A stretch of 64,000 nucleotides of DNA from an uncultured archaeon (GTDB lineage Archaea; Asgardarchaeota; Lokiarchaeia; Sigyniarchaeales; SOKP01), in contig CAZALK010000004.1 of assembly GCA_964486045.1 (NCBI GenBank), forward strand, positions 192,001 to 256,000. The letters run 5' to 3'. A program made the translations under genes and the position numbers. This document shows positions 3,224-57,676 of the stretch, in pieces. Each line of letters begins with the position of its first letter. The stretch's first letter is position 1. The notes beneath the pieces are model-generated. The model was not told the origin of the DNA. It was given only the letters and a program-made list of their open reading frames with translations, and searched no databases.

Positions 3224-3595
3224 AATAATAACTACGCAGATGCCTATTTAGTAAGAACATTTCTTGAAATGAATCAAATTCCCATAATTCCCGTCGATAT
3301 TTCATTAGAATTGCCAAAATTTAGGGATCCTGGTGAGACAAGCTGTTATATCTTAGCAGAATCAGAAGGTCTATGTATCAGCTCAGATATTCGCGCAATA
3401 AAAAAATTTAATAATTTTCAGATCCCTTGTATCCAATTAGATACATTCTTTTACAAACAATTTTTAAATAAGAAGATAAGAAGAAATAAATTTACTAGTA
3501 TTCTAGGAGATCTTAAAAACGTAAATGGTACATCAGCTAATAGGATATCAATTTTTTTAGAATTAATTTCACAAGGAGGAATAAAAGATGAGTAA
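3224..3595 (+). pseudogene. 5'-truncated PIN-like (DUF3368-like) toxin
   Basis: Frame extends upstream of 3269 as NNNYADAYLVRTFLEM, resembling the middle of 21360..21857 (KNYTEAFIIESFIK). GE and SSD motifs present; N-terminal PIN strand and start absent. Confidence 0.6.
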
Positions 3596-3902
3596 AACCA
3601 TAAGCACAAGAATAGATGATGAATATGTTAAAAAATTAGAAGAAATAGCAAAAAGAGAACATATCGACCGTTCTGCATTAATAAGAAAATTTATTCTGCA
3701 AATGTTAAAAGAATATGAGCTTAAACGGATGGCAGAATTATATCGTAAGGGCATTGTTAGTCTCCAAGAGGCTGCAACACAGGCAAAACTATCGCTATAT
3801 GAAATAATGGAATATGTTAAAAAGGAAAATATTCACCCTCCAGACCAAACTAAAGAGGAAATTCTCTTTGAAATTGAAAAATCCAAAAATTATGATGTAT
3901 AA
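3588..3902 (+). CDS. RHH + UPF0175-family antitoxin
   Basis: TISTRID...DRSALIRK RHH; LYRKGIVSLQEAA UPF0175 motif; overlaps toxin remnant. Confidence 0.8.
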   Translation: MSKTISTRIDDEYVKKLEEIAKREHIDRSALIRKFILQMLKEYELKRMAELYRKGIVSLQEAATQAKLSLYEIMEYVKKENIHPPDQTKEEILFEIEKSKNYDV

Positions 3903-4043
3903 TTTCATTTATGATAGTGAAAATACTTTACCATTCATTTAGATCAGAGAAATAGGTCAGGAAATTTAATAACAAAACTTTACTAAAATAATCCCAAGGT
4001 AAAGGAATTTGAAAAAAAAATTGGTAGATAGTTATTAATATGT

Positions 4044-4073
4044 ATATTCACATATATTCACATATATTCACAT
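4044..4073. promoter_or_regulatory. 3x 10-bp direct repeat ATATTCACAT, probable TA operator
   Basis: Perfect tandem repeat about 30 bp upstream of the antitoxin start at 4103. Confidence 0.6.
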
Positions 4074-4102
4074 AACTAACAAATCAACAAATTAAGATTA
4101 AA

Positions 4103-4327
4103 ATGGCAAATTTAACTTTATCAATTCCCAATGAATTAAAAAAAATGATGGAAAATTTTCCAGAAATTAATTGGTCTGAAGTAGCAAGAGATTCAATAAA
4201 AAAAAAAATAGCACAATTAAATTTTATAAAAGGTTTCCAACTCGATAGTGAAATATCTCCTGAAGAAGCTTTAAATCTTGGAAGAGAAATAAGTGAACTC
4301 TTACTAAAACATTATAAGAGTGAGTGA
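4103..4327 (+). CDS. RHH/CopG-like antitoxin
   Basis: MANLTLSIP...EINWSEVAR archaeal VapB-type motif, upstream of PIN gene. Confidence 0.8.
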   Translation: MANLTLSIPNELKKMMENFPEINWSEVARDSIKKKIAQLNFIKGFQLDSEISPEEALNLGREISELLLKHYKSE

Positions 4328-4330
4328 AAA

Positions 4331-4750
4331 ATGAAATTAGTTGTTGATGCTAATATTCTTTTTGCTGCTTTAATAAAAGAGGGATCAACAGCTGAGCTCT
4401 TAATTAGCGATAAATTACAGCTTTTTGCCCCCGAATTCTTATTTACGGAATTTATTAAATATGAAGAACTTATTCTTAAGAAAACTCATCGTTCCCGTGA
4501 AGAATTCAAATAGTTTTTAGAATTATTAAAAGAACAGATTACCATTATTCCAAAAAAGGATATAACCTCTTTTATAGATAAAGCCGAAAAAATCTCTCCC
4601 GATCCCAAAGATACAGTATATTTAGCTCTTGCTTTCGCACTTAAATCTAATATCTGGTCGAACGATAAAAGGTAAAAGCAACGTCAAGTAAAAATAACTG
4701 TATTCTCAACAGTAGAATTAATTCATAAAACCAGTTTATTAAAAACCTAG
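4331..4750 (+). pseudogene. PIN (VapC-like) toxin with two nonsense codons
   Basis: LVVDANILF start. Frame continues past TAG 4511-4513 (FLELLKEQ...PDPKDTVYLALA...IWSNDKR) and TAA 4673-4675 to TAG at 4750. Confidence 0.85.
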
Positions 4751-4931
4751 ATAGATATAGCATTATTAAAATATGAGAAATTACAAGAATATGGATGGTA
4801 TTAAATTGAAGCTATTAAAGAGTGGTTTAAGAAATATTCAAAAAAGCTGATAATTTTTATTAAACTACTTTAAGATCTCCTAATGAAAAGTGTATATTTT
4901 CCTTCTATTCATTCAGAAAAAGGTCACAGAC

Positions 4932-5180
4932 TTAATTAGTTTTAATATTAAGTGTCAATAGTGGGTTTTTACTCGTAAATATCTCTGTTATAAAACCTTC
5001 AAGGAAAGGAAAATTCTTTAATTCAATAACTTGGCTCGTTTCAGAAAACCTATCAAGAGTTTGCATTATTGAAGGAATATTTTGGAGGCGTTCGATAAAA
5101 TATCCCAACTTCTTTTTTGCCACGTATGTTTGACCTTTATATAAATAACAGATTGAGAACTTTGAAATAGTTTCGATTAA
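4932..5180 (-). pseudogene. 3' remnant of longin-like C-terminal domain gene
   Basis: LIETISKFSICYLYKGQTYVAKKKL...TSQVIELKNFPFLEGFITEIF matches the C-terminus of 7762..8673; no 5' part. Confidence 0.8.
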
Positions 5181-5213
5181 ATATTATGATTTTTAACCAA
5201 CCAATCCAACTCT

Positions 5214-6167
5214 TCAAGAAGGGGTGTTCCGTTTCAACCAATCTAGCAAGAAAACATTCACTTCATTAGACTTTTCCTGTTGAATCCAATGTCCGCAGTC
5301 TAACGTAATGCTTTCTAGATTCGGGATATAGTTCGAAACATCACCACCTTTAGCTACAATGTCGTGGTTACCATATATCATTGCACAGGGAACATCAATG
5401 TGTTGAATAAGTTCAGCCGAGTTCTCCCAGTTTCGAGTGATGTTTCGATACCAGTTGATCGGTCCTGTAAAACCGCCTTTAATGAATGCAGAAACAAACA
5501 CGTCCATTTCCTCTTCCGACATAAGAGGTTCACCCGGAGGATCCAACATCTCAAGTATATTCATCAGAGACACAACGGGAGCAGGGTCACCTGTTGAGGG
5601 TAGTGTAGTTTGATTTACCCATTGTCGTTGACGGAATATATTATTGAAAAAGCGTTTTGGTTTGGCTGCAAAAGCAGCATCGGCTACACCGGGTTGTCGG
5701 TTGAAATGAACAATATAATTTTCCGGACCAAGGAACTGCTCTAACGCGGAGATGGGTTCAAAATTTCCTCGAGGGAAAAAAGGTACACTCATTCCAACCA
5801 CACCCGCAACCCTTTTGGGGTGCATAAGCGGCATATTCCAGACAACCATGGATCCCCAGTCATGTCCGATGAAGATCGCTTTTTCTATGTCGAGGGTATC
5901 CATCAACCCAATTAAGTCACCACAAAGATGACGCATATCGTATGCTTCTACGGGTTCAGGTTTGTCTGTCTCTCCATATCCCCGCTGATTCGGTACAATA
6001 ACCCGGAATCCTGCTTCAGCCAGTACGGGAATCTGAAATCGCCAAGAATAGGCGAGTTCAGGAAATCCATGTGCTAAAATTAATGGAAATCCTTCTCCTT
6101 GCTCAAAGATTTCTATATTGATCTCGTTGACACGAAGAATCCTCGGTTCGGGAAATTTAATATCCAT
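5214..6167 (-). CDS. Epoxide hydrolase-like alpha/beta hydrolase
   Basis: HGFP, RGYG, GHDWG nucleophile Asp, NWYR, GHWIQQE. Confidence 0.88.
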   Translation of the reverse strand: MDIKFPEPRILRVNEINIEIFEQGEGFPLILAHGFPELAYSWRFQIPVLAEAGFRVIVPNQRGYGETDKPEPVEAYDMRHLCGDLIGLMDTLDIEKAIFIGHDWGSMVVWNMPLMHPKRVAGVVGMSVPFFPRGNFEPISALEQFLGPENYIVHFNRQPGVADAAFAAKPKRFFNNIFRQRQWVNQTTLPSTGDPAPVVSLMNILEMLDPPGEPLMSEEEMDVFVSAFIKGGFTGPINWYRNITRNWENSAELIQHIDVPCAMIYGNHDIVAKGGDVSNYIPNLESITLDCGHWIQQEKSNEVNVFLLDWLKRNTPS

Positions 6168-6466
6168 TTTTCTTAATCCTCCTTTTACATGAAGTTTTGA
6201 TTTTTAGTAATGATTATTTCATTCTTTTTCATAATAAATTAAATTATTTAAGCCTTTACTCTAACGAGTTAAGGTAATTTTATAAAACCTGACAAAAAAC
6301 TATAAAATTATTAATATTTATTGACTTTTTACTTAAATAATTTAAAACAAATTCTATTTTAGAATTTAATAATTATTGTTTTATTCTATTTGTGTTTTAA
6401 ATTTTTTAAATTGAATGAAATCGAAAAATTAAAAAAATGAAATGAAAAAAATAGGAGCCAAGAAAA

Positions 6467-7045
6467 ATGAGTGTAACAATTTTGAACGGAAGCAGAAATG
6501 ATCTGGAGCAAACAATGGTTGTTAATAAGATACTTGAGCAAGAATTCGAAAATGCAGGGTTGAAACCAGAATCAATAATTCTCCGAAATATTGAAGATCT
6601 AAAGCATTGCGTGGGATGTTTTAGATGCTGGGACGAGACACCCGGTATATGTATTATCCCCGGTCCACATCGGGAAATAAATCAAAAGATTATCAATAGC
6701 GATCTATTAGTTTACTTGACACCTTTGACATTCGGCGGATACTCATCGGAGATCAAAAAAATGATTGAATTTCAACTTGGGCTTCTACTTCCTGATATGA
6801 CCTTGAGCAGTGGTGAAACACACCATAAAAAAAGATACAAAAAATATCCATCCGTACTTGCAATAGCAACAACCGAAAATCAAGATGAGGAAGAGGAACG
6901 GATGTTTAAAAATCTTATCGACCGCCATGCACTTAACTGGTATCCCCCAGAGCACAGAGCTGTTATAATTCATGCGAAAGAAAATGAAAAGTCCATTCAA
7001 GATCGGCTTAAACGCATCATTGAAGAAATGGAGTTGAGAAAATGA
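6467..7045 (+). CDS. Iron-sulfur flavoprotein / flavodoxin family protein
   Basis: LNGS start; CVGCFRCWDETPGIC cysteine motif. Confidence 0.8.
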   Translation: MSVTILNGSRNDLEQTMVVNKILEQEFENAGLKPESIILRNIEDLKHCVGCFRCWDETPGICIIPGPHREINQKIINSDLLVYLTPLTFGGYSSEIKKMIEFQLGLLLPDMTLSSGETHHKKRYKKYPSVLAIATTENQDEEEERMFKNLIDRHALNWYPPEHRAVIIHAKENEKSIQDRLKRIIEEMELRK

Positions 7046-7761: not shown

Positions 7762-8673
7762 TCAGATTGGTTCTTTCCTTTGAGTAAAGATTTCAGTAAT
7801 GAGTGATTCGAGGGAGGGGATATCCTTTAATTCAACAACCCGGCTTGTTTTATAAAACTTCTCTAGAGTTTGAGATATTGAAGATTTGTTTTGTATCTCT
7901 TGTGCAAATTTAGCTAATTTTTTCGCAGCTAGAGAGGTTCGGCCTTTGAATAAATAACAGATTGAGAAGTTTGCTACAGATTCCATTAGTACTGTATATT
8001 GACCGAATTTGGCTCGATCGAATTCTTCAGAAAAGAACTCATCACTGAAGGAATTAAATGCAGATAAAAAACTTCCAAATAGAACATCATCACGTTTCCA
8101 TTCATCAACAAAAGGATAAGAGAATAAAAGAACACCACCAGCTGTTATAATGAGAAGTACTACTGGTTCTTCATCAACTAACTCCTCGGTAGTAGAGCTA
8201 GGTTTTTCAGTGAAAAAGAATAATGAGTCCTCAACTTTAGCCTGCTTTTTAGGTAATAATTTTTTAGGTTTAGCGGATTCTTCTTTTAATCCTAAGTAAA
8301 AAAACAAAAAACAAAAATTAATCCCAATTCTTATGATATATAATCCGAATCCAGGAGCTAAAAATAGATCAAAAAACGTAAAGAAAACAAAGATAAAGAA
8401 GCCAATTGACAAATACAAATTTTTTCTTCTTATAATGCCTTTTGATTGAAGACTTTTACGAAAAAAGCCAATTCCGTTAAAGAGAACAGAAAAATCGAAA
8501 ATTACTATAAGAATAAATGCGGGATATAAAATTTTAAAACTAGAATCAATTAAACTCCATCCTGGGTTCTCGGGAAGATGAAATATAAAGGAATTCTCAT
8601 TATCAAAAAATACAAAAATTATTCCCAAAATAATGTAAATTGAGACTATATACCATTTCTTCTTGGTAAACAA
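7762..8673 (-). CDS. Membrane domain + C-terminal longin-like domain protein, probably 5'-truncated
   Basis: About 4 hydrophobic helices, then EEPVVLLIITAGGVLLFSYPF...LFGSFLSAFNSFSDEFF. TTG start only 22 nt after upstream stop. Confidence 0.65.
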   Translation of the reverse strand: MFTKKKWYIVSIYIILGIIFVFFDNENSFIFHLPENPGWSLIDSSFKILYPAFILIVIFDFSVLFNGIGFFRKSLQSKGIIRRKNLYLSIGFFIFVFFTFFDLFLAPGFGLYIIRIGINFCFLFFYLGLKEESAKPKKLLPKKQAKVEDSLFFFTEKPSSTTEELVDEEPVVLLIITAGGVLLFSYPFVDEWKRDDVLFGSFLSAFNSFSDEFFSEEFDRAKFGQYTVLMESVANFSICYLFKGRTSLAAKKLAKFAQEIQNKSSISQTLEKFYKTSRVVELKDIPSLESLITEIFTQRKEPI

Positions 8674-8695
8674 AATCTCAACAACTTCTCAAGGA

Positions 8696-9661
8696 TCATT
8701 CTGGGAACAAATGCAAACCCTGCTTGTATATTTTTTCCTCATACCAGGTAATCTGTTTTCTAAGTATCTCTTCCAAGCTAGTTCTAGGTTTATAGTTCAA
8801 GATACTCCTGGCTTTATCAATGTTAGCCTTGGTACGTAGTTGATCTCCAAGACGTTTTGGCATCGATTTAAACTGGGCTTTTCTACCCATTATTTTCTCA
8901 ACAAGGGCAATCCCCTCACTTGTTTTGATCTCTTTATCAGAACCTATATTGAAGATCTCTCCAATGGCTTTTTCAGGTTGTTTGAGTATAGCTATAAATC
9001 CTTCCACAATATCCGTAACAGCAGTATAGCTGCGTGAATGATCCAGACTACCTTCGAACAACGGAAAAGATTCATCTAATAGAATTGAACGAATTAGCTT
9101 TGTAAAAAGCTTTTCTGGTCTTTCACGAGGACCGATAACTGAAAAAATTCGCAAAGAACAAGTCGGTAATTTTAACTCTCGGTGATAAGCTAATACTAAC
9201 TGCTCAGCGGCTAGTTTAGTAACACCATAATATGAGGTAGGTTTAGGTGCCATATCTTCATTATCGTATGCAAATCGACCATAAATCGAGGAAGTAGCGA
9301 TATTGACTATACACTGCAGATTTGGTAGAGATTTCGCGGCTTCCAATAAATTATGGGTTGCGTGTATATTATTGCGGATATATAGCTCATATGGGGTTGT
9401 AGGGGAAATTCCAGGTTGTGCTGCTGCATGATATATGAATTCAACACCTTCTATGATGTCAACTAAGTTATCGGTGGCTAAATCTGCTTCAAAAATCCTC
9501 ACCCCTTTATCAGAGATGTCTTTAGCATTAAGTCGCTTTAATTCAGGAGCATAATAAGTATTGAAGTTATCAATCCCAATAACTTCATGCCCCATTTCAG
9601 CTAGGGTTTCAGATAAATGAGAACCTATAAATCCAGCCGCACCTGTGACTAAAATTTTCAT
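8696..9661 (-). CDS. NAD-dependent epimerase/dehydratase (nucleotide-sugar epimerase type)
   Basis: TGAAGFIG, TSSIYG, YGVTK. Confidence 0.9.
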   Translation of the reverse strand: MKILVTGAAGFIGSHLSETLAEMGHEVIGIDNFNTYYAPELKRLNAKDISDKGVRIFEADLATDNLVDIIEGVEFIYHAAAQPGISPTTPYELYIRNNIHATHNLLEAAKSLPNLQCIVNIATSSIYGRFAYDNEDMAPKPTSYYGVTKLAAEQLVLAYHRELKLPTCSLRIFSVIGPRERPEKLFTKLIRSILLDESFPLFEGSLDHSRSYTAVTDIVEGFIAILKQPEKAIGEIFNIGSDKEIKTSEGIALVEKIMGRKAQFKSMPKRLGDQLRTKANIDKARSILNYKPRTSLEEILRKQITWYEEKIYKQGLHLFPE

Positions 9662-12152: not shown

Positions 12153-12444
12153 TTATATATTTACTGGATTTCTACTTGTAAAAATTTCTGTTATAAAACC
12201 TTCAAGGAAGGGAAAGTTCTTTAATTCAATAACTTGACTTGTCTCATAAAATTTATCAAGTGTCTGCATAATTATAGGAATCATTTCTGGTATTATTGCT
12301 TCTTTAGTTCCAATTAAATTTTCAATTGAGTCACTTAACGATGCAAGATTCAATGTAGGTGATTTTATCAAGTGCCTCTGACAATTTACCGTCATACATG
12401 AGTTCTTCTGCTTTTACCACTTCTTCGGACCTTGGATCAGACAT
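12153..12444 (-). pseudogene. Internally deleted TPR/longin-tail gene (N- and C-terminus only)
   Basis: 12444..12331 encodes MSDPRSEEVVKAEELMYDGKLSEALDKI; 12281..12153 encodes the longin-like tail IMQTLDKFYETSQVIELKNFPFLEGFITEIF. Confidence 0.65.
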
Positions 12445-12644
12445 ACTTCTTCTAAAGAATATACTTGGATTAAAAAAGAGAAAGAAAAGTTTCCTTAAAA
12501 GCCTTTTGAACTGTGTGATATCAACCGTTAAATTTGACTCAATAAACAGAATTTTTTCTGTTAAAACTAAACCAAATCTAGAGAAGTAACTTTTATTAGG
12601 TTATGAGGTCTATCTTTTAATTATTACAATTTTTAAAAAGTAGG

Positions 12645-14192
12645 GTGTTAAAAATTAGCAAAGTTAAAAATGCGTATAAAGAAATAGAAGATATCCTTGG
12701 ATCAGACTACATATCAGATAAAGATTTCATGAAGGCGGCTTATTCTCGGAATGTTGATCCTGCGTTCCCAGATCGATGGGCTGATATAATTGTAAGGCCT
12801 GAAACCACAGAAGAAGTATCTGAAATTGTTAAAATTGCCAATAAATACAAAATTAGAATTATCCCTCGTGGTGGGGGCGCTGACCTTGTCGGGGGGAGTG
12901 TAACTGAGAAAGGGATTCTTCTCGACATCACACGAATGAATCAAATACACGAAATTAATGTGGACGATTATTACTGTATTGTGGGATGCGGTATTACTTG
13001 GGGTGCGATGCTTTCAGAATTACAGAAAAAAGGAATGACTACCGGAATTCTTGGGCCAGGCTCTGGATATTCTGCCACTATTGGAGGAGGTCTTTCAAAC
13101 GCAACCGTAGGATTTTGCTCTACTAAATACGGAGTTGTACCAGATATTTGTCTTGGGCTTGAAGTCGTACTTCCGAATCCTGAAGGGACGATTATAAAGA
13201 CTGGATCATGGGCAAACAAATATGCGAAGCCTTTTTGTAGGTATGGAGTGTCACCAGATTTCTCAGGTTTATTTTTAGGAGATGTTGGGACCCTTGGAGT
13301 AAAAGTGAAAGCTTCTCTACGATTATTTCCTGATCCTCCATATAAAGCGCGAAGATATTTTATGCTTGCAAAAGATGATTACAATCAAGTATTCAAGATA
13401 GCTCACAAAATGCGCAGGGAAGTCGGGGATGGATTAAACGATTTAATGGTGTGGCCATCCATATTATTTCAAATGCTTTCCGCCCAAGTCACAAATAAAC
13501 CAAGTACTAGGCCAAAAATAACCGGTCCAGCATTTGGGGTGACATTAGAAGCAACCGATCAACGAATTTTAGACGTTTATCTAGAAAAAACTAATGAGAT
13601 TATGATGAAAGACAATGTGTGTCGACCATTTGAATGGCAAGAGATTGATTTAGACATGGTATTGTCGAGAGACTGGAAGTTCACACTAAAGGAAGAGTTC
13701 AATTTCTTTCAAAAATACATATCAGCAGCTCCACCAAAAATCTCGTGTACAACTTGCCACAAGGTTGCAATATCCAGACTTGATGAAAGCGTTCAAAAAG
13801 GCGTGCAATTCAATATTACTAATCAAAAAGAGTTTCCACCAAAGAATCCACCATATCCCGTTTTTGCTTCCTTCTTGATGTTTTTACCTAATGGAAATGT
13901 TGTTATAGTTGGGGGACTCGGCGGTGATAATACTGATGAACATCGTGAAACTACTATGAACATTTGGCATAAAAAGATACGACACCAAGCACGGTATGGG
14001 GCTGCTCATTATTGGTTAGGTGAATCAATCAGTCAGTCAATTGTCGAAGCTGGTGCTTTCACTCCTGAATATATGCAATTTTTTAAGGATATGAAAAAAG
14101 CAGTCGACCCAAACTATCTCTTGAGCCCAAATAAATTCCACATGTATTCATACGACCATGATTACACCCAACATCTTGTAAAAGACGAGTAG
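12645..14192 (+). CDS. FAD-binding oxidoreductase, paralogue 3
   Basis: Same motifs as 1531..3024; AHYWLGES. Confidence 0.9.
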   Translation: MLKISKVKNAYKEIEDILGSDYISDKDFMKAAYSRNVDPAFPDRWADIIVRPETTEEVSEIVKIANKYKIRIIPRGGGADLVGGSVTEKGILLDITRMNQIHEINVDDYYCIVGCGITWGAMLSELQKKGMTTGILGPGSGYSATIGGGLSNATVGFCSTKYGVVPDICLGLEVVLPNPEGTIIKTGSWANKYAKPFCRYGVSPDFSGLFLGDVGTLGVKVKASLRLFPDPPYKARRYFMLAKDDYNQVFKIAHKMRREVGDGLNDLMVWPSILFQMLSAQVTNKPSTRPKITGPAFGVTLEATDQRILDVYLEKTNEIMMKDNVCRPFEWQEIDLDMVLSRDWKFTLKEEFNFFQKYISAAPPKISCTTCHKVAISRLDESVQKGVQFNITNQKEFPPKNPPYPVFASFLMFLPNGNVVIVGGLGGDNTDEHRETTMNIWHKKIRHQARYGAAHYWLGESISQSIVEAGAFTPEYMQFFKDMKKAVDPNYLLSPNKFHMYSYDHDYTQHLVKDE

Positions 14193-15362: not shown

Positions 15363-15517
15363 AAAAAAATTAAATAACCATTGTTTATTTTATGAGTTAG
15401 AACCAAGTTCTCTAAATGTTAAGTGCGTAAAATGGAAGTATATCTCATATTAAAAATAAATAGTAATCCGAGCTAGAATTAAGAGCACAAAATTACTCAA
15501 ATTGCTTTAATGGCCGG
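15363..15517 (+). repeat. Decayed copy of the promoter and 5' end of the 3-hydroxyacyl-CoA dehydrogenase gene (16703..16860)
   Basis: Shared blocks AAAAAATTAAATA, AACCAAGTTCT.TAAAT.TTA, AAAATGG, AGTAATC, TTGCTTTAATGGC.GG in the same order. Confidence 0.8.
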
Positions 15518-16651: not shown

Positions 16652-16771
16652 ATTACCTTGTTGTTTTACAGTCCGAATCTTATTATAATCCTTACAAAAA
16701 TTAAAAAAATTAAATAGCTAATCGTTATTTTAAGAGATAAAACCAAGTTCTATAAATATTAGGTGTAAAAA

Positions 16772-17971
16772 ATGGTAGATATATCTTATATCAAAAATAT
16801 TGCAGTAATCGGTGCTGGAATACAAGGGCACGCGATTGCTCAAGTTGCTTTAATGGCTGGTTTTGAAAAAGTATTTTTAAACGATCTTACTATGGAAACA
16901 ATAGATAAAGGAGTATCTTTAATTAAAAATAATCCAAGACTGGGATTGAAAAAACTTGAATCTGATGGGTTATTAAAAGCAGGGGAGACAGCAGATCTTA
17001 TCCTAAAAAGGTTGATAAAAGAACCAGATCTTAAAAAAACGGTCGAACAAGCCGATTTTGTATTTGAAGCAGTACCAGAAGTAATGGAAATTAAGAAAGA
17101 GGTGTATCGAAAATTGGGTGAATATACCCCAAAAGCCACTGTTTTAGCTTCAAATACGTCTACCATGAGTCCTACAAAATTAGGTGAAGCGTCAGGTAAA
17201 CCAGAAAATGTTATAGGAATGCACTTTTTTGGACCAATAAGGAATGAATTAATCGAAATTACAAAAGGTGATAAAACTTCAAGTAAGACCATGGAAATAG
17301 GTATTGCTGTAGGTAATAAGTTACCATCTACGGGGGGAAAAAGGGTTATAATTCAACTCGAAAAAGAAACTCCCGGACACATCGCGAATAGAGTAGTTGT
17401 ATCAAGTTACATATATATTAATTGGATTTTCGATCAAGCACGAGAAAGAAATATACCTTTTGAACAACTTGATGCCGATTTTATGGAACTTACTCCTAGA
17501 GGTATTTGTGTTCTAGCTGATACTGTTGGATTAGATACACTTTATAATGTATTGAAATACTATTCAGAGACATTATCACCCGAATTCACCCCCGGTAAAG
17601 TTCTATCTAATCTAGTCGAAAATGGGGATTTTGGCGTAAAGACGGGGAAAGGCTTTTATGATTGGTCTAAGGGATCCCCTCCTAAAATCGATCCCTCAAA
17701 GAAAGCTGGATTTGTGGATGTTGAAGTTTTAATAGCTCACATGTTAAACGAAGGTTGTAGGCTTTTAGAACAAGGAATCGTTAAGGGATACAGAATTATA
17801 GATAAAGCAGTTTCTGTAGGATATCGAATGCCGGGTCCTTTCAGCTTGGGAAAAAGAAATTACAAGCACTTATCAAACAAGTTAGAAGAAATTTCAGAAG
17901 TTTCAGGTATAACCTATTTAAAACCTTGTTCTCTTATGAAATCTGGTGAATTTCTTAAAATGAGAAAATAA
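16772..17971 (+). CDS. 3-hydroxyacyl-CoA dehydrogenase
   Basis: GAGIQG, EAVPE, ASNTST, GMHFF, GVKTGKGFY. Confidence 0.9.
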   Translation: MVDISYIKNIAVIGAGIQGHAIAQVALMAGFEKVFLNDLTMETIDKGVSLIKNNPRLGLKKLESDGLLKAGETADLILKRLIKEPDLKKTVEQADFVFEAVPEVMEIKKEVYRKLGEYTPKATVLASNTSTMSPTKLGEASGKPENVIGMHFFGPIRNELIEITKGDKTSSKTMEIGIAVGNKLPSTGGKRVIIQLEKETPGHIANRVVVSSYIYINWIFDQARERNIPFEQLDADFMELTPRGICVLADTVGLDTLYNVLKYYSETLSPEFTPGKVLSNLVENGDFGVKTGKGFYDWSKGSPPKIDPSKKAGFVDVEVLIAHMLNEGCRLLEQGIVKGYRIIDKAVSVGYRMPGPFSLGKRNYKHLSNKLEEISEVSGITYLKPCSLMKSGEFLKMRK

Positions 17972-19240: not shown

Positions 19241-19425
19241 TTAGGTTTTTTCCAAGGTTATAACTACATTTCCCTTTTTATGCCCTTTATCAACATAGCT
19301 ATGAGCCTCGACCATTTGTTCCAAAGGATAGCGTCTATCTATGACCGATTTTAGCTTCCCTGCCTCAATCAGTTCTCTGAGGAAGATCAAATCTTCTTCC
19401 TTTTCTGTTGCTGCGCCACCTTTAT
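19241..19425 (-). pseudogene. 3' remnant of an MDR-family (zinc-binding ADH/quinone reductase-like) gene
   Basis: [46 protein letters not shown] is the typical MDR C-terminus; the rest is missing. Confidence 0.85.
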
Positions 19426-19555
19426 ATTCAAAAAATCCAAATCTTCGCTTTTCATTTACTAAATTTATCAATATTCATAGAAAAAATCATAAATAATCAA
19501 ATTTTAAACAATATAAGGAAATAAGGAGACATTTTGTTGTTATATTGTCGGAGAA

Positions 19556-21154
19556 TTGATAATAAAAATGAGTGATTCAGTATTTAAAATTGTTGATTTA
19601 TTTTATAATCCAAAATCAATAGCAGTGATTGGTGCTTCAAAGGTTCCCATGAAAGGAGGAAACCGGATAGTTAACAATCTACACTCAAATGGCTACAAAG
19701 GTCAGATTTATCCTGTTAACCCCAACTATAGCATAGAAGATGAAATATATGGTTTCAAATTCGTAAAATCTGTTTTAGATATTGAAGGGGAGGTAGATCT
19801 TGCCATTTTTTATGTAAACAATCGAATCGTAACTAATATTCTAAAAGATTGTGTCAAGAAAGGAATAAAAGCAGCTATAATACAAAGTGCTGGTTTTGAG
19901 GAAGTGGGGGTAGAAGGGTTAAAACTAAGGGATGAAATTGCAGTTATAACAGAAAATTTCTCCAAACTACGTATTATTGGTCCTAACTGTATGGGAATCA
20001 GTCGGTTCGATGGGGATTATGATGATAAAAAAGGGGGTTTCTTTACTGGACAATTTGCTCTTACAAATTATAAAAAAGGTAACGTTGCGATCATCACTCA
20101 GAGTGGTTTCTTGAATGGTGGAATAGCACCACTAATTTTTCGACAGTACCCAAATCTTGGATTTAGGTACATTGTTTCAATTGGAAATAAGATGGACTTA
20201 GGAGAAAATGAATTTTTAGAGTATATATTAGAAGATGAATCTGTGAATGTTATTGCAATATATTTAGAGTCATTTAAAAACCCTAGAAAATTCATCTCTT
20301 TATGTAGAAAAGCAAAACAATTACCTAAAAAGACTATTATTCTTGTAAAAGGTGGAAAAACAAGCCAAGGGATGAAAGCAGCTTCTAGTCACACAGGTGC
20401 TTTAGTTGAAGATGAAAGATTAATTGATGCTATCATTAAACAAGCAGGAATTATTCAAGCAAATAACTTTTTTGAAATGTTCCAATTTCTAAGAACGTTT
20501 TCTATGATGTATAAATCAGGAAAGAAATTCCCTATAAAAGGAAATATCGCTCTTGTTGTTGGGAGTGGAGGTATGGGAACTGTAATGGGAGATATTGCTA
20601 TGAAATACGGTTTAAAGTTCCCTGAGTTTGGTGAGAATAGTTATAACATTCTTAAAAGTGTATTCCCTGATTGGATGCCTCCAAATCGATTTGCTCTCGT
20701 TGATGTTTGGCCTACCATGGAAAAAGCAATGATGGATGCAGCCAAAAAAGCCAAGAGTACTGTTAATAAGTCAACTAAAAAACCTATCAAGAATAATAAT
20801 GAAAAAAATCCAATTCATGTTATGGGTTCTTTTGGAAATGTTATGCAAGTGATTCAAAGAGCCGTTTTAGAAGAACCTAAAATTGAAGGTTTGTTTACAT
20901 CCATGCCAGGTGGTCCAAGAGGACGTGGAGGGACAATGGACTTTATGAAACTGATGCTGGAACGCATAGCAAAATACCCAAAGCCCGTTTTCTTTTATTC
21001 AATGATGGAAAGTGAGGAATCTTTAGAAATGTTAAGGTTATATGGCAAGTATAATATTCCTTTATTTACCAGAACAGAAGACATTGCCAAAAATTTTGCA
21101 GCTTTGGTTCAAGAAACAAAGAATAAAGAAAGATTTTCAAAATTTGGTTTTTAA
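19556..21154 (+). CDS. ADP-forming acyl-CoA synthetase, alpha-subunit family
   Basis: PKSIAVIGAS, IIGPNCMG, TQSG, SIGNKMD, phospho-His SHTGAL; ATG at 19568 is a likely start. Confidence 0.88.
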   Translation: MIIKMSDSVFKIVDLFYNPKSIAVIGASKVPMKGGNRIVNNLHSNGYKGQIYPVNPNYSIEDEIYGFKFVKSVLDIEGEVDLAIFYVNNRIVTNILKDCVKKGIKAAIIQSAGFEEVGVEGLKLRDEIAVITENFSKLRIIGPNCMGISRFDGDYDDKKGGFFTGQFALTNYKKGNVAIITQSGFLNGGIAPLIFRQYPNLGFRYIVSIGNKMDLGENEFLEYILEDESVNVIAIYLESFKNPRKFISLCRKAKQLPKKTIILVKGGKTSQGMKAASSHTGALVEDERLIDAIIKQAGIIQANNFFEMFQFLRTFSMMYKSGKKFPIKGNIALVVGSGGMGTVMGDIAMKYGLKFPEFGENSYNILKSVFPDWMPPNRFALVDVWPTMEKAMMDAAKKAKSTVNKSTKKPIKNNNEKNPIHVMGSFGNVMQVIQRAVLEEPKIEGLFTSMPGGPRGRGGTMDFMKLMLERIAKYPKPVFFYSMMESEESLEMLRLYGKYNIPLFTRTEDIAKNFAALVQETKNKERFSKFGF

Positions 21155-21174
21155 AAGGAATTTTCATGATTTTG

Positions 21175-21263
21175 GGCGAAGAATCTATGTGAATGGTATT
21201 GAAATTGAAGTAGGACCAGAAATTGAAAAAAACAAACTTAGAGAAGCAATTAAAAATGTATAA
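21175..21263 (+). pseudogene. Probable 3' remnant of an unidentified gene
   Basis: RIYVNGIEIEVGPEIEKNKLREAIKNV is protein-like, starts about 20 nt after the upstream stop and has no own start. Confidence 0.35.
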
Positions 21264-21359
21264 ATAGGAAGCCTACTTCATCATCTATCTAATTAATAGT
21301 TTAGTATGAGAAACTCAGATATTATCATGTTTATATAGGATAAAATCGTATACTATAAT

Positions 21360-21857
21360 ATGGTAATATCCAATTCAAGTCCATTAATACATTTAACTAG
21401 ATTAGGAAAAATCCAGTATTTATTTAAATTGGCGAGAAATATCAACATCCCCAAAGCTGTATTTGATGAGGTCGTGACACAAGGAAAATTGAAGAATTAC
21501 ACAGAAGCATTTATTATTGAAAGTTTTATAAAAAAAGAAAAAATTACGGTAATTAATTTAGATCCCTTTGATGAATCATTTTATCCTCCACTAGGGAGAG
21601 GCGAAATAGAGGTTCTAGAACTAGCAAAACAGAAAAATGAATTATTAATAATTGATGAAAAGAAAGCTAGAAATATGGCTCAAATCCTTCAAATTAAACA
21701 TCAAACAACTATTGCAACAATTTTTGAATTATTAATATCAAAAAATATAGATTTTTTGGATTATAAAACTAATTTGAAGATGTATGCGGAAAGTAGCTGG
21801 ATTTCAGCAGATGTTATCCAAGAATATATTGAAAAAGGTGAGAATTATGGGGGATAA
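21360..21857 (+). CDS. DUF3368-type PIN toxin
   Basis: VISNSSPLIHL, IPKAVFDE, LGRGEIE, IIDEKKAR. Confidence 0.85.
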   Translation: MVISNSSPLIHLTRLGKIQYLFKLARNINIPKAVFDEVVTQGKLKNYTEAFIIESFIKKEKITVINLDPFDESFYPPLGRGEIEVLELAKQKNELLIIDEKKARNMAQILQIKHQTTIATIFELLISKNIDFLDYKTNLKMYAESSWISADVIQEYIEKGENYGG

Positions 21858-22164
21858 AATATCTATTATTCTACCAGATGATTTAAAGAAAGAAATTGAC
21901 AAGTTAAAGGAATTACATAAGGAAGATCAATCCTCGTATATAAGAAAGCTCCTATGGAAAAGTATTGCGCAAGAAAAATTAACTTATGCTCTAAACCAAT
22001 ACCTCGATGATAAGATATCTCTGGGAAAATCTTCCGAAATGGCAGGGATTTCCATTTGGGAAATGCTCGATGAATTACATAAAAAGGATAATACATTAAA
22101 ATACAAAATTTCAGAAGCAGAATTAGAAATTGAAAAGATATTAAAAAAATATATGAAAATTTAA
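21847..22164 (+). CDS. UPF0175-family antitoxin
   Basis: ATG 21847 overlaps toxin end; YLDDKISLGKSSEMAGISIWEM. Confidence 0.82.
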   Translation: MGDKISIILPDDLKKEIDKLKELHKEDQSSYIRKLLWKSIAQEKLTYALNQYLDDKISLGKSSEMAGISIWEMLDELHKKDNTLKYKISEAELEIEKILKKYMKI

Positions 22165-22415
22165 GATTAATTTTTGAATTATCTTTTTTTCTTGATGAGT
22201 ACAGCTGCTATCGATATCATAGGAACTATTTATGTATTCTTGCTTATCATAATTTCAAAAGAATTTTCATTGAAATCAGACGATGAATTCACCTTTCCAA
22301 CCCAATTACAAGGGAAATTGAGACAAAATTTAAAAAAGCTCGAACTTTACAATGCAGAAAGAATTTTAAAAATCAACAAGATTATTTAAAATAATATTTA
22401 GGGAGATTTTAGAAA

Positions 22416-22835
22416 ATGAATAAAAATACTAAAAAAACTTCAATCGGGGAAGCATTTGCATCGCAGTATGATAAAATTTGGGAAATACTGATGGAAGCCA
22501 TTGATAATGCTTCGGATGATTTATGGAAATACTTCAAAAACACATGGCGTTATGCGTAGAACGTATTTCACGTGGTAGAGGTAATCTTTTATTTTACTCT
22601 TGACGATCCCGAAGGGATGAATTGGGGTGAACGTGCAAATATAAACTGGGAGAAAGATAATGAAATCAAATCTTTAGAAAAAATGACAAAAATAACAAAG
22701 GAATTAGTTAGAGAGTTTATTGATGAGATTAGAGATAGTTGGTACAAAAAAATAAAAGAAAAGTCCGACGAACATTTTTTGTCTAAGGATGATTTCGGTA
22801 CCTTTACATCGAATTTAGAACGATTTACTAAGTAA
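22416..22835 (+). pseudogene. DinB-like gene with in-frame TAG and apparent 3' truncation
   Basis: ATG 22416 is in frame with 22572..22835 across TAG 22557-22559 (WRYA*NVFHVVE); ends at ERFTK before the expected C-terminal His motif. Confidence 0.6.
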
Positions 22836-22869
22836 TGATTATTTAGTAAAAATATCTAAACTAAAAGAA

Positions 22870-24123
22870 TCAAATTGCTTCTAAAATATGTACACACATG
22901 GCTGCGGGTCCTGAACCAATGGTACCGCCACCATTTTCAGCTAATGCAAATTTTGGGTCATTAGTTTGTCTTTTTCCAGCGTCTCCACGTAATTGTGTCA
23001 CAAGCTCATAGATTTGTGCTAAACCAGAAGCACCTAGAGGGTGTCCACGTGATAATAAACCACCGCTAGGGTTTACAGCGACCTTTCCTCCAATCTCTGT
23101 TTCCCCGCTCTCAGTAAATTCCCCTCCTTTTCCTAATCCGCAAAATCCCATCTGTTCAATTTGTTCGAGTTCTCCATAAGCTGTAGCATCGTGTACTTCA
23201 GCAACGTTTATATCATTAGGGCTAAGACCTGCCATTTTATAAGCCGCTGTAGAAGTTCGCTCAGAAACATTATCTTTTTGCCAAGAACCAGATCTTAGAA
23301 TTGAAGCTCGAATTAACACAGCTTTATCGTTGGGATGCTCTTTTAAGAACTTTTCAGAACAGAGTATTGCTGCCGCCGATCCATCTCCTACTGGGGCACA
23401 CATTGCTCTAGTTAATGGAAAAGCTACTTCATAATCATCCATTACCTGATCCACTGTCATGGGAAAAGTATATTGAGCAAGTGGATTCATTGTAGAATTG
23501 TTATGGTTCTTTGCTGCGATTGCGGCAAGTTGTCGTTGAGTAGACCCGTATTCTTTCATATGGGCTCGGGCTCCTGCTGCATAGAAATCCATGAAGACAG
23601 AATGACCTCCCTTTCCTTTCTTTTTTCCACCGTCTTTTTGACTAGCAGCTTTTTCTGCTCTAAGTTTTGCTGCTTTTTGCATTTGTTCCATCATGGCTTT
23701 AGTTCTTTCAACATCTGTATAAGTAATAAATCCTCTCATCATTTTAGCTCGATCTTCTTGATATACTTTTTCAGTGCCGATAGCTAAGGCGCAGTCAAAT
23801 ACTCCTGCTTTTATGCCCATCCATGCTCCATTAAATGCTGTACTCCCACTGGCGCAGGCATTTTCTACATTTGTAATTGGAACTTTATCAACACCATTCG
23901 GAGTAAGTGCTACTTGACCACGAATGCTATGTTGAAAATCTGTCATACCCCAACCTGTATTAGAGAACCAAGCAGCCTCAATATGGCTCAAATCAAAATT
24001 GTTATCACTTTTTATAGATTTAAGCGCTTCCGCAGTCAAATCTTTAATACCCCTATCAAGAAATTTACCAAACTTAGTCATTCCTACACTATACACATAA
24101 ATCTTATCACTCATCGGTATCAA
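22870..24123 (-). CDS. Thiolase, SCP2/SCPx-like type
   Basis: ENACASG, EVHDA, GHPLGASG; start may be 24114. Confidence 0.9.
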   Translation of the reverse strand: MIPMSDKIYVYSVGMTKFGKFLDRGIKDLTAEALKSIKSDNNFDLSHIEAAWFSNTGWGMTDFQHSIRGQVALTPNGVDKVPITNVENACASGSTAFNGAWMGIKAGVFDCALAIGTEKVYQEDRAKMMRGFITYTDVERTKAMMEQMQKAAKLRAEKAASQKDGGKKKGKGGHSVFMDFYAAGARAHMKEYGSTQRQLAAIAAKNHNNSTMNPLAQYTFPMTVDQVMDDYEVAFPLTRAMCAPVGDGSAAAILCSEKFLKEHPNDKAVLIRASILRSGSWQKDNVSERTSTAAYKMAGLSPNDINVAEVHDATAYGELEQIEQMGFCGLGKGGEFTESGETEIGGKVAVNPSGGLLSRGHPLGASGLAQIYELVTQLRGDAGKRQTNDPKFALAENGGGTIGSGPAAMCVHILEAI

Positions 24124-31097: not shown

Positions 31098-31248
31098 TTC
31101 AAAATAATTATGTTACATTTTAATTCTTAAAGGAGAATGCATTTAGAAATGATAAAAAAATTTCTTACTTGGTTTTCAAAACTATTCCATCTTCCTTCAA
31201 AATAACTATGTTACTTTCTAATTCCTCAAAGGAGAATGAATTTAGAAA
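31098..31248. repeat. Imperfect direct repeat of about 52 bp (31098..31149 / 31196..31248)
   Basis: TTCAAAATAA.TATGTTAC.TT.TAATTC...AAAGGAGAATG.ATTTAGAAA in both; second copy lies in the toxin 3' part. Confidence 0.8.
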
Positions 31249-31529
31249 CTTTTCAAATTTTGGAAGAACATTTTCATCAATTAAGGGATGGATATCAATT
31301 AGAATTAAAAAATCTTCATTTTCCGCTTTAATTCAATGAAATCTTTATCATATGTTATAAGAATGCGACTTTCTTTACTGGCTATTTCTAGAAGGGTGCT
31401 ATTTTTCACCCCTCTTTTGTTCAAATCTTGAACTGTAATAGCATCATATCCTTTAGAGATCAATAGCTTTCTTAAGTTATTAGATACGTTTTCATCTAGT
31501 AAAAATTTTGCTTCATGAGATTGAGGCAC
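31165..31529 (-). pseudogene. DUF5615 PIN-like toxin, frameshifted
   Basis: FLLDENV...RILITYDKDF to 31305; the -1 frame continues FLILIDIHPLIDENVLPKFEKFL...IVILKEDGIVLKTK to TAA at 31165. Confidence 0.75.
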
Positions 31530-37436: not shown

Positions 37437-38873
37437 ATGATGACAAAGCCAAATATTATCTTGATCTTTCCCGATCAGCATAGAGGAGATGTAATGGGTT
37501 GTATGGGAGATCCAGTAGTTATTACACCAAACCTTGATAAACTTGCAACTGAAGGTGTTGTATTCACTCAATGTTTCACCAATTCTCCATTATGCATTCC
37601 AGCTCGGGCTACACTGATGACAGGGAAATATGTTAGTGATCATGGAGTGATTAATAATAATATAGAGGCTAGTAGCTCAAGTTAGAGTCATGTAAGAAAT
37701 ATTAAAGATGCGGGGTACCATACTGCTGTAATTGGAAAAACCCATTTATATGTCCATGGAGGAAATTCAGAAGAAACTCATACCAATGAAAAGATTGATG
37801 TAATAAAGGAATGGGGTTTTGATGACATTCACGAAATTACCGGCCCAATAGCGTCTATTAGACTTGATTCACCTTATACAGATTATTTAAAAGAAAAAGG
37901 TTTACTAGAAGATCATCGAAAATATCTAAGAGACTATTATGCAGAATGGACTCGTGGTGAAGCAAAACCGTGGAAATTACCCCCCTCTCCTCTCCCATCA
38001 GAAGATCTATTAGATAGTTACACAGGTCAAAAAGCTGTAGAGTGGATACATGATTACGATGGCGAAAAACCTTTTTATCTTCAAATCTGCTTCCCAGGAC
38101 CTCATGATCCATTTGATTCACCTCAAGAATATCGAGATTTGTATGATTCAGAAGAAATGCCTGAAGGAATTTTAGAAATGCCAAAAAAACCATATCCGGG
38201 TAATATCAATTTTGTATTGAACTGGAGTGGGCTTGACGGGATGACATCAGCTCAAAATCAGATAATGAAAACTTTCTATTATGGGAAGATAACTTTAATT
38301 GATGAATGGATCGGGAAAATCGTGAGTGTTTTAGAAGAAAAGGAGTTATTAGATAATACATTGATTATATATACTTCTGATCATGGTGAAATGCTGGGAG
38401 ATCACATGATGAGTCATAAAATTGTATTTTATGAAGGAGCCTTAAGGATTCCACTCATCGTTAGACCACCAGGGGGTACTAATGGGTGGTGTTGTAATGG
38501 ACTCACTGATCAAATCGATATTGCGGTTTCTTTAATTGATACTGCTAATGCAAAACCATTAGAAGATTGCGATGGTAGATCATTGATTCCTCAAATTTTA
38601 GCTGGATCTGAAGATACACATGCACAACAAGGAAAAGATGTTATTTTTAGTCAAGTTCTTCAATATACTATGATCAGGAATGAACAATATAAATTGGTTG
38701 TAAGATCCCATAATCTAGAACCTGTAGAATTTTATGATCTCAAAAAGGATCCGAAAGAATTAGAAAATAAGGTTAAAGATCCATCACTAAGCGATCTTAG
38801 ACAAAAATTAATTGATAAGCATTTAACAATACTACTTGAACCTTCTAGAATGAAAATACCACCTAAATTGTAA
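37437..38873 (+). pseudogene. Sulfatase interrupted by one in-frame TAG (pseudogene, sequencing error or readthrough)
   Basis: PNIILIFPDQHR and CIPAR signature; after TAG 37683-37685 the frame stays open through GYHTAVIGKTH, GPHDP and TSDHGEMLGDH. Confidence 0.85.
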
Positions 38874-54019: not shown

Positions 54020-54211
54020 CTATTTATTTTGATATTTTGGCTTTCTTCCTTGCGAAATATCCATAAGCCACTCAGCAAAATCCTCCGTTGAGGAAACTAC
54101 ACCATATCCATAGGCATCTAATTCAAGAGCAATATCCATTGGAAGAGATGCTCCAAAGGTGACCATTTGTTTTGCGATTCCAACACCTATGGGGGCACAA
54201 TTATTTAGCAA
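54020..54211 (-). pseudogene. 3' remnant of an enoyl-CoA hydratase gene
   Basis: APIGVGIAKQ...ALELD...STEDFAE...RKPKY is the crotonase C-terminal helix bundle only. Confidence 0.8.
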
Positions 54212-54287
54212 AAACGAAGAAATAAAGAAAATACTAAACTAAAAATGGATGTAATAATTTAAGACCAATTATTAGATGAATGAATAA

Positions 54288-55340: not shown

Positions 55341-55343
55341 TAG

Positions 55344-56189
55344 TTATTCTTCAAATGATTGCAAAATGGCATCGAATCGTTTTTTTACTTGCTCTTTCCA
55401 AAATGAATCATTATGAGTGAAAATATATAATTTCTCCTTTTTAATCGCTTGGAATACAATATCTGCTACTTGATCAGGTAGAAGCATAGGAGATCCTTCC
55501 ATTAACCTTTGTATTTCCTCTGCCCTTTCCTCACTCCTCCCTTCAGGGGATAATAACTCTTTTCTCCGTTTTTCAGATATACGGCTAAGAGCAGATAAAA
55601 ATATATTGGTCTTAACAAATCCGGGACATAGAACTGAAACTTTAATATTTGGTCCATTTTCCTCCAATTCAAAGGCTAGTCTTTCTGTAAGGTGCATTAA
55701 AGCATGTTTACAAACTCCATATGTAGCACCTCCAACTCCGTTAGAAATTACTCCTTCAATTGATGAAGTATTTACAATATGACATTCATTACCTTGTTTG
55801 AGCATGATGGGAATGAACGTACGTATGCCATGAATTACTCCCCACAAATTCACCCCTAAAACCTGTTCCCATTCTTTTAGATCATATTCCCATACCAAAT
55901 TCGGTACTGCAATTCCAGCATTGTTGAACAGTAAATTTACTTCTCCAAAGGTTTCTATTGTTTGTTTCGCTAAATCTTCAACTGCATTAGCTTTTGAAAC
56001 GTCTACTACAACTGAAAGAACTTGCGTTCTTTCCCGTTTGAATTTTCTTTCTAACCTTTTTAAACGTCTCTCATCTATATCTGATATAACTACCTTCATT
56101 CCTTCTATAGCACATTTTTCGGCTAACCCTTGTCCTATGCCACTAGCCGCTCCAGTGATTACTGCTACCTTATCCTTAAATTCTTTCAT
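55344..56189 (-). CDS. Short-chain dehydrogenase/reductase
   Basis: Start MKEFKDK; TGAASGIG, NNAG, YGVCK. Confidence 0.9.
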   Translation of the reverse strand: MKEFKDKVAVITGAASGIGQGLAEKCAIEGMKVVISDIDERRLKRLERKFKRERTQVLSVVVDVSKANAVEDLAKQTIETFGEVNLLFNNAGIAVPNLVWEYDLKEWEQVLGVNLWGVIHGIRTFIPIMLKQGNECHIVNTSSIEGVISNGVGGATYGVCKHALMHLTERLAFELEENGPNIKVSVLCPGFVKTNIFLSALSRISEKRRKELLSPEGRSEERAEEIQRLMEGSPMLLPDQVADIVFQAIKKEKLYIFTHNDSFWKEQVKKRFDAILQSFEE

Positions 56190-56332
56190 ATTAAGTATAT
56201 CATCTATATTCAATAAAAAGCTTATTCCATGCATCTCAAAACTAATCAATCCTTATTAAGAGTGAAAGATAATTAGTTATTTAATAAAATATCAATTTTC
56301 TGTAAAAACAAATTTAACGATCACGATTAATT

Positions 56333-57352
56333 ATGAAAGCGGCAGTTTTTTATGGACCACGAGATATCAAAACAGAAGAAGTGGTGGATTACAAGATTCT
56401 AGATAACGAAATCCTTATAAAAGTTAAAGCTTGTGGAATTTGTGGTTCAGATTTGCATATGTATAAATTGAATCTTTTTTCTATGATACTTGTAAAACCT
56501 TCAAAGAATGGGGGAATCCCCGGTCATGAATTTAGTGGTGAGATTGTAAAAGTAGGAAGTAAAGTCAAGGGATTTATGGAAGGAGATAGAGTTGTCGCAC
56601 TTACTAATGGGGGTATGGCTGAATACGTATCTGTTCCCATTATGGATGGCCTTAATATTATAAAATTACCCTCTGGTGTTAGTTACGAGGAGGCAGCAAC
56701 ACTCGAACCCTTAGCAAATTCTTATCATGCAATGATGAGGGGTAAACCTTTTAAAGGTGCGAATATTGTTATTTTTGGTGTAGGTGCAATAGGATTAGGT
56801 ATAATCCAATGCTTGAGAGCGCTTAGTATAGACGTAAATAAGATAATTGCAATAGATTTATCAGATCATCGTTTAGATGTTGCTAAAAAGTTTGGTGCTG
56901 ATGAAATTATTAATTCCAAAGGGATAGATCCCATTCCAAAAGTTACAAAAATTGTGGGTAGTGTTCCCCTTTTTGGATCCCCCTTATTAAAGATGCCTAA
57001 AGTCGACATTGTGTATGACTGTGTAGGTTACATGAAAGAATATAAAGGACCTATAGTTCTCCAGCAATCTATAAACATGGTTCGTGATAAAACAGGTACT
57101 ATCGTGGTCCACGGGATATTCGAGGATAGTGTCTCTTTAGATCTAGTTTTTATGGTTGGTAAAGAAGTGACAATTAAGGGATCATTTGCGTTTTCTCGAG
57201 AAGAGCTCGAAAAAAGTTTAGAATTAATGCAGAACAAACAAATTGATAGAACTCAAATTATTTCTCATGAATTTTCTATAGATGAAGCAAATAAAGCTTT
57301 TGAAACTCAATGTAACACAGAGGAATCATTAAAGGTTCTAATAAAACCTTAA
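56333..57352 (+). CDS. Zinc-dependent alcohol dehydrogenase (MDR) lacking the structural-Zn loop
   Basis: CGSD, GHE, EP, GVGAIG; no 4-Cys lobe after GDRV. Confidence 0.88.
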   Translation: MKAAVFYGPRDIKTEEVVDYKILDNEILIKVKACGICGSDLHMYKLNLFSMILVKPSKNGGIPGHEFSGEIVKVGSKVKGFMEGDRVVALTNGGMAEYVSVPIMDGLNIIKLPSGVSYEEAATLEPLANSYHAMMRGKPFKGANIVIFGVGAIGLGIIQCLRALSIDVNKIIAIDLSDHRLDVAKKFGADEIINSKGIDPIPKVTKIVGSVPLFGSPLLKMPKVDIVYDCVGYMKEYKGPIVLQQSINMVRDKTGTIVVHGIFEDSVSLDLVFMVGKEVTIKGSFAFSREELEKSLELMQNKQIDRTQIISHEFSIDEANKAFETQCNTEESLKVLIKP

Positions 57353-57469
57353 TTTTTTTTAGAAAATATTATACTTAAAAATTAAGCATTTTTTGGTTCA
57401 TTTATCTTATTTATTTTTCTTGTTTCCTTTAATTGTTTTTTAATAAATTTAAAGTAAATAAATTTAGAG

Positions 57470-57676
57470 CTATGAATCAAATGCTTTAAGAATTCCATCA
57501 AATCGTTCTTTAACTCGGCTTTTCATAAATATATCTTTATGAGTAAGAATGTAGAATCTTTCTGCTTTTATTTCTTTCATTATAATCTCAGCAGCTTTTT
57601 CTGGAGAGATAGTAAGTGATTGTTTTAAAGCTTCTTCAACATCAAAATCTAATTTTGAGTAAATTACTTTTTCTAA
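57470..57676 (-). pseudogene. 3' remnant of an SDR gene
   Basis: ISPEKAAEIIMKEIKAERFYILTHKDIFMKSRVKERFDGILKAFDS aligns with the C-terminus of 55344..56189. Confidence 0.82.

Follow-up and report, generated by a model that had tools for sequence, protein, structure and literature searches.

Gene remnants and an att-like repeat in a metabolic island of a Lokiarchaeial genome

We describe here the gene remnants of a 64,000-nucleotide stretch of DNA from an uncultured archaeon, referred to as the window, and an att-like repeat that lies among them. The window corresponds to C4:192001-256000 of a metagenome-assembled genome (MAG) of the Lokiarchaeia (Promethearchaeia) with a size of 5.18 Mb, 31% GC and a contamination of 7.8%; this genome is denoted G000, the compared genomes carry other G numbers, and C numbers denote contigs. 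The closest relatives are by label mostly Promethearchaeia or Promethearchaeota (equivalent to Lokiarchaeia), fall within a single GTDB genus of 54 genomes, and are about 80% identical to the window genome. The region is a genomic island carrying genes for fatty-acid and CoA metabolism; its backbone is colinear across G002, G004, G013, G038, G040, G053, G056 and G062, and its accessory genes differ between genomes at a given slot. The original prediction for this DNA, that it comes from an Asgard archaeon in which incoming genes overwrite the 5' part of a resident gene and leave its tail, is correct as to the organism and, as described below, partly so as to the process.

Remnants in the window

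The predicted remnants are real in that a full-length homologue exists for each, with qualifications at 22416, 31098 and 31857. The window is rich in such remnants, though syntenic references aided their detection there. They are listed here with the intact genes that bear on them; 3' remnants are referred to as tails and 5' remnants as heads.

3224-3595, + strand: PIN-type toxin lacking about 47 N-terminal codons; from 3260 a 75% DNA match to a full gene in G031
3588-3902: intact antitoxin (RHH/UPF0175) beside the truncated PIN toxin
4932-5180, - strand: tail of the TPR/'longin-tail' family (blastx), 33 nt from the stop at 5214
5214-6167, - strand: intact alpha/beta hydrolase, 44% GC; context unrelated in G040
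7762-8688, - strand: resident membrane + tail gene, about 110 N-terminal codons gone, frame open; 71% amino-acid match to a syntenic 423-residue gene of G056
8696-9661, - strand: intact epimerase (Pfam), final gene of a 3.8-kb block replacing the 5' part of the 7762 gene; absent here in G056
12153-12444, - strand: TPR/tail gene with an internal deletion, the start and about 37 codons joined to an out-of-frame tail; upstream region common to G040 and G056
15363-15517, + strand: head, copying a dehydrogenase promoter and start at 78%; the intact counterpart lies at 16703-17971 (16772 gene)
19241-19421, - strand: tail of an MDR oxidoreductase, 84% amino-acid match to C6 paralogues; non-syntenic in the sampled relatives
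21175-21263, + strand: 30-codon tail, probable GNAT family (judged by eye), 76% to C18:50607
22416-22835, + strand: codons 1-136 of a 166-codon gene with an internal TAG, last 30 codons lost; nearly full length
31098-31149, - strand: repeats, at 89%, 53 near-terminal nt of the toxin next to it, without that toxin's last 11 codons
31857-32005, - strand: decayed TPR/tail-family tail, a weak match (E 2e-4), within a 955-nt insertion missing from G038 and G062
54020-54202, - strand: crotonase tail; in-place deletion of about 0.76 kb covering promoter and 5' part, both flanks matching G040:C11
57470-57664, - strand: SDR tail; in-place deletion of about 1.64 kb in a three-SDR array, both flanks matching G062:C19
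57680-58585, - strand: intact SDR, resident rather than swapped in; 82% amino-acid match to the syntenic G062 gene

Two of the tails are in-place deletions. Because G040 has a full crotonase gene between both window flanks (81% and 79% identity), 54020 represents a 0.76-kb deletion, and in G062 there are three tandem SDR genes, the first of which is fused through its stop to the tail of the third in the window. No incoming gene is involved at either site, and a swapped-in gene is rejected at both because synteny shows both flanks to be resident. The syntenic comparison does reveal the expected full resident genes at 7762, 54020 and 57470, but overwriting by an incoming gene is seen only at the first of these and at two sites in G038. 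The crotonase site is intact in four genomes and reduced to a tail in five (14, 31, 92, about 180 and 215 nt; two allele types), with no heads; the second break, where mappable, is 64-106 nt upstream of the start, and some 25 nt separate the crotonase stop from the TATA-like box belonging to the next operon. This comparison is our best evidence for repeated loss filtered towards tails.

A conserved oxidoreductase (at 12645) adjoins a replacement hotspot that contains the remnants at 7762, 4932 and 12153, and gene content there varies among G002, G004, G038, G040, G053 and G056. To the left of 12645 there may be a 423-residue membrane gene (G056), a 700-residue TPR gene (G040), a PIN/AbrB pair (G004 and G038), or others, and at the 4932 tail itself G040 has a full gene of the TPR/tail family and G038 a tail. 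The window carries the hotspot gene types serially, with the 3.8-kb block separating the truncated G056-type gene from the shared upstream region. This is one clear replacement: the resident 5' part is lost at 7762 and foreign DNA is present at the junction, as it is not at 54020 and 57470, and a homologous anchor, comprising the conserved oxidoreductase and the shared upstream region 12466-12700, is available to this block only. G038 independently has a TPR tail at the hotspot, preceded by toxin-antitoxin (TA) modules, and at its two sites, beside a conserved anchor, incoming genes took over the resident's 5' part. We suggest that the hotspot pattern fits anchored illegitimate insertion as proposed for displacement in type VI secretion system (T6SS)/Rhs loci (PMC5361080). 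A further feature lies in the same stretch:

655-844: 190-nt tract identical to 13140-13329 (inverted), in oxidoreductase paralogues otherwise about 65% alike

Both paralogues remain colinear with G002, and the tract is probably a recent gene conversion, which points to recent ectopic recombination between paralogues in the hotspot stretch.

Other degraded genes are found in the window. The TPR/tail family, for which the 'longin' label has no Pfam match, is present in G000 as one full-length gene and about 14 fragments (15 loci), and G040 keeps many full copies. A sulfatase (37437-38873) has one in-frame TAG at codon 83 of 478 and an intact orthologue in G013, the PIN gene at 4331 has an in-frame TAG and TAA, and the toxin of a DUF433 TA pair (31165-31529) is frameshifted around codon 68. 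Five relatives have a third FAD oxidoreductase in tandem, which the window lacks at 3024-3269. A 61-nt stretch (22824-22884), with 93% identity to C19:60952 and 12-bp inverted arms around 3 nt, cuts the 22416 gene at its 3' end.

Tails and heads across the genome

Remnants were scanned for genome-wide by blastx of all non-genic DNA against full-length paralogues, with split genes removed. Tails outnumber heads by 52 to 22 (p=6e-4), and detection is symmetric, simulated fragments being recovered 184 and 183 times respectively. The excess is retained when counted per reference gene (43:22), when the tail family is left out (46:21), and outside the near-repeat class (about 36:18). Further remnant clusters occur at C1:858-863k, C2:118-124k and C10:64-66k. 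We found no description of a 3' bias of remnants in searchable papers, and no direct report of remnant polarity or of Asgard pseudogenes in the searchable, partial literature.

The position of tails relative to stop codons offers a different picture. The original prediction proposed that remnants are biased both to 3' ends and to the stops of intact genes, citing those at 5214, 8696, 21154 and 57680; the four distances are right and the 3' bias stands, but 10 of 34 tails are within 40 nt of a co-oriented stop (7 of 27 in this genome and 3 of 7 in relatives), as are 30% of ordinary co-oriented spacers. Stop adjacency is rejected as a signature, since the tail-to-stop distance matches background. 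This bears on the proposal of a single dedicated gene-swap route that overwrites 5' parts and ends at the stop codon of the incoming gene. Intact genes do end 6-80 nt before a tail at 7762, 4932, the crotonase site of G038 and a ligase site of G018; however, with adjacency at 29% against 30%, no junction motif shared outside the att site, and SDR and crotonase tails that require no incoming gene, we regard such a route as improbable.

Two further accounts concern the nature of the remnants themselves. Tails could be 5'-truncated reverse-transcribed copies, which would be expected to lack their 5' part, and two reverse transcriptase genes are present in the genome (C41:635-1309 and C14:142544-142948). 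This is rejected for the syntenic tails, as four of the five testable ones (31857 is the other) are situated where relatives hold the full gene or family, and with the majority of distant remnants just 67-90% like any gene in the genome, we consider it extremely improbable overall. Chimeric assembly of a strain mixture might be suspected from the MAG contamination, but independent MAGs show breaks at these sites too, and several genomes have a colinear backbone; moreover, the remnants are too distant to collapse in assembly because they are 70-89% like their paralogues, and we view this as very unlikely.

The att-like repeat and duplicated gene ends

The prediction that the window lacks any mobile-element trace is accurate for transposase and integrase domains, none of which occurs in the 20 open reading frames (ORFs) scanned, the remaining ORFs being judged by homology. 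There is also no tRNA or Rfam RNA in the window, and the five tyrosine recombinases and two reverse transcriptases of the genome are all outside it. The prediction did not, however, anticipate one full and one half att-like site, the only copies in the window that exceed noise in a hidden Markov model (HMM) search:

19450-19466, + strand: possibly an att copy that has collapsed, bordering the CoA-ligase unit on its left; a full site here in G062 and G013, below HMM detection in the window
19556-21154, + strand: acyl-CoA ligase unit, shared with several genomes at 89-92% DNA identity and in differing contexts; att on both sides in G062
21149-21167, + strand: left half of an att-like site, holding the ligase's present stop codon; the sole orphan among nine genome-wide matches with at most one mismatch
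22251-22345, + strand: full att-like site with about 50 nt of element leader (E 3e-15)

The ligase is flanked by att sites in G062, and here its stop lies within the half site, which joins the 21175 tail, making 19450-22870 a decayed att row. The junction at 21175, which had been predicted to be a swap junction, passes through the half site.

The repeat at 22251-22345 has about 24 copies in the genome and is present in 24 of 24 genomes of the genus and in none of 16 from other genera. Sites within rows are co-oriented apart from two opposite neighbour pairs, and 42 of 63 intervals contain one ORF, with genes in the same orientation 38 times and the opposite 45 times. Some site-to-site units are common to several genomes, their homology stopping 0-8 nt from the sites, and orientation is kept in 15 of 18 shared pairs. 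The copies have a sharp left edge and extend 30-400 nt into the leader of a gene for a 172-residue NikA-like RHH protein, which is followed by a 302-307-residue tyrosine recombinase (PF00589 at 7e-23). In intact elements, of 6-12 kb, the recombinase gene is beside one site and a second direct copy is several kb away (L163, L166, L175-L177). Of 53 genomes only 4 have a close copy of this recombinase (partial in two), and the window's genome is not among them. We infer that the recombinase acts on the att rows.

The opposite strand of the site encodes a conserved peptide that heads variable tips of 400-550 residues, and the site is sometimes in frame inside a gene 41-44% like giant proteins, although toxin and immunity matches are weak (deaminase and SUKH, below Pfam cut-offs). 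The att target may belong to a polymorphic toxin system, in which a large constant N-terminus carries a variable toxin tip and an immunity gene lies alongside. The copies diverge directly past an ACCTT/ACCAT stretch, which suggests that the exchange point lies there. The consensus is without AAC/GTT boxes and has a fold of about -4 kcal/mol, no attC covariance model having been run; a canonical attC or Rfam RNA is unsupported by consensus, fold and Rfam. A role as an operator is rejected, as many copies lie between convergent genes and the repeat extends into the integrase operon. No exact match was found in viral contigs, and no description of this att/cassette element in searchable papers.

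These features suggest a broader scheme, in which a genus-specific element encoding an RHH regulator and a tyrosine recombinase has an att site that doubles as a conserved peptide in giant toxin-like genes, so that integration would exchange the C-terminal tip, with orphan 3' ends left behind. Stripped site-plus-gene derivatives moved in trans would build integron-like rows in every tested genome of the genus, including 19450-22870, and together with the genus-wide 3' survival bias this would amount to an undescribed route of turnover in Asgard archaea. We offer this scheme as a possibility and lean somewhat against it as a whole.

Several loci related to the element deserve mention. Giant ORFs of 5,200-9,470 residues in G000 (C7:85-28497, C8:142-28344 and C4:281939-297592) have a C-terminal region that resembles the att-target gene of L176. 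L175 (G053:C129:1-19999) has a tandem pair of integrase modules with att sites heading variable tips and additional genes (LRR-like or small immunity-like) after each. An ORF adjoining an att copy (G000 C4:91464-92663) has a start that resembles bacterial-type EF-Tu, presumably through transfer or contamination.

Gene ends are also duplicated elsewhere. The best DNA match of 16 of 53 tails is 0.3-10 kb upstream in the same orientation, some matches being remnants themselves, and in recent cases exact repeats of 42-135 nt bracket cargo where relatives have empty sites. A GTPase site on C1 is unoccupied in almost all relatives; the junction between its cargo and the tail lies inside coding sequence, at a microhomology of 4 nt (CTGG). 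The cargo behind the GTPase (G000 C1:31732-32451) consists of a cut coding piece and a small gene of an immunity-like family with at least seven relatives in the genome. The end of acs is duplicated in three genomes with differing boundaries, and a provirus of Lokiarchaeum has been reported to integrate beside acs (10.64898/2026.02.13.705702). Such duplicated ends were probably left by anchored insertions or by elements that have since decayed. It is tempting to extend this to most tails: integrative elements would insert within or at the 3' end of a gene, the end would be duplicated or displaced, and the integrase would later disappear, leaving the tail as a scar; the upstream matches, the bracketing repeats with empty sites, the acs duplications beside a known provirus target, and the displacement of C-terminal modules by the att element are all in keeping with this. 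However, the testable window tails are in-place deletions or have no upstream homologue, the repeat boundaries at acs are variable rather than fixed, and the tail excess persists outside the near-repeat class. The att site touches only 1 of 74 scored remnants plus 21175, and is rejected as a general cause of remnants. We consider it unlikely that integrative scars account for most tails.

Origin of the remnants and relation to known systems

The interpretation that we favor, and hold to be probable, is that the window is a fast-turnover accessory island whose remnants derive from illegitimate joins by host repair or recombination and are filtered by selection. Joins without new DNA made the crotonase and SDR deletions, and replacements such as that at 7762, where a foreign block takes the place of the resident 5' part beside the conserved oxidoreductase and shared promoter, would involve homologous pairing at the conserved gene and an illegitimate join at the far end. 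The decayed row of att-bounded genes at 19450-22870 adds a few remnants. Tails may outnumber heads because heads keep a promoter and start, make truncated products and are purged; a tail would not be expressed, and it borders on the promoter of the next gene or the terminator of a convergent one, which would limit deletion from that side.

Further observations bear on this interpretation, some for and some against. A convergent gene is faced by 28 of 52 tails against 39.5% expected (p=0.046), which lends slight support to border protection, but purging of heads gains none from their length, heads being not significantly shorter (p=0.13), or from start retention, 15 of 22 heads keeping a start codon nearby. 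Loci from ten relatives have 14 tails and 3 heads, although these loci were picked for synteny and are non-independent, and start-call artefacts flagged as 5' pieces were excluded. Most junctions are unreadable to the base because the relatives are only about 80% identical, and the 7762 join is likewise unreadable at base level (about 75% identity). No donor carrying exactly this incoming block came to light, and the 7762 frame is still open, such that trimming after the event to about 17 nt from the epimerase stop is not obvious.

Gene gain and loss in Asgard archaea is, to our knowledge, largely uncharted. The remnants of the window mostly reflect known processes operating in Lokiarchaeia, plus a measurable survival bias of 2-2.5:1 in favor of tails that is testable in other prokaryotes. 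The att rows, formed by scars of an apparently undescribed integrase element and the new part of these observations although they explain few remnants, matter more than the remnants themselves. Because the recombinase is named, the site is defined and one-gene units are shared, an attC-free cassette system in an Asgard lineage is directly testable in E. coli or in vitro.

The comparison with described systems argues for a variant of known turnover rather than one new route, since mobility-free hotspots, decaying TA islets and Asgard integrons are all known. Homology-anchored illegitimate recombination, which the original prediction put forward as an example of a possibly undescribed route, has precedents in homology-facilitated illegitimate recombination (HFIR) and in T6SS/Rhs displacement (PMC5361080), which share with the window a conserved anchor, an incoming block, a displaced resident 3' part and no need of an integrase; they differ in that the window involves metabolic and TA genes, an archaeon, and many pure deletions. 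Bacterial hotspots of horizontal gene transfer without mobility proteins are common, 27% of hotspots lacking any (PMC5635113), and TA islets decay to remnants (PMC13617665). In the portions of these two reports available, the likeness extends to differing genes per syntenic slot, TA modules, remnants and the lack of a local integrase, whereas those portions report no 3' remnant bias and the present case is in a genus of Lokiarchaeia. Elements integrated in Asgard genomes (PMC11529989; Fylgjavirus, 10.64898/2026.02.13.705702) resemble the att element in their tyrosine recombinase, att duplication and non-tRNA targets (next to acs), but as far as the accessible text of those sources goes they have short att sites or single insertions, with no att-bounded rows of single genes and no in-frame tip exchange. 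Integrons are known in Asgard archaea (PMC9668308), and integrons and clusters of attC sites lacking an integrase (CALINs) are like the att rows in their co-oriented sites, mostly single genes, units common to several arrays, and the frequent absence of the tyrosine recombinase. The att rows nonetheless depart from them in that the site is without RYYYAAC/GTTRRRY boxes and folds weakly, the genes point either way and have upstream regions of their own, and the att site, which is also protein-coding, forms the end of an integrative element.

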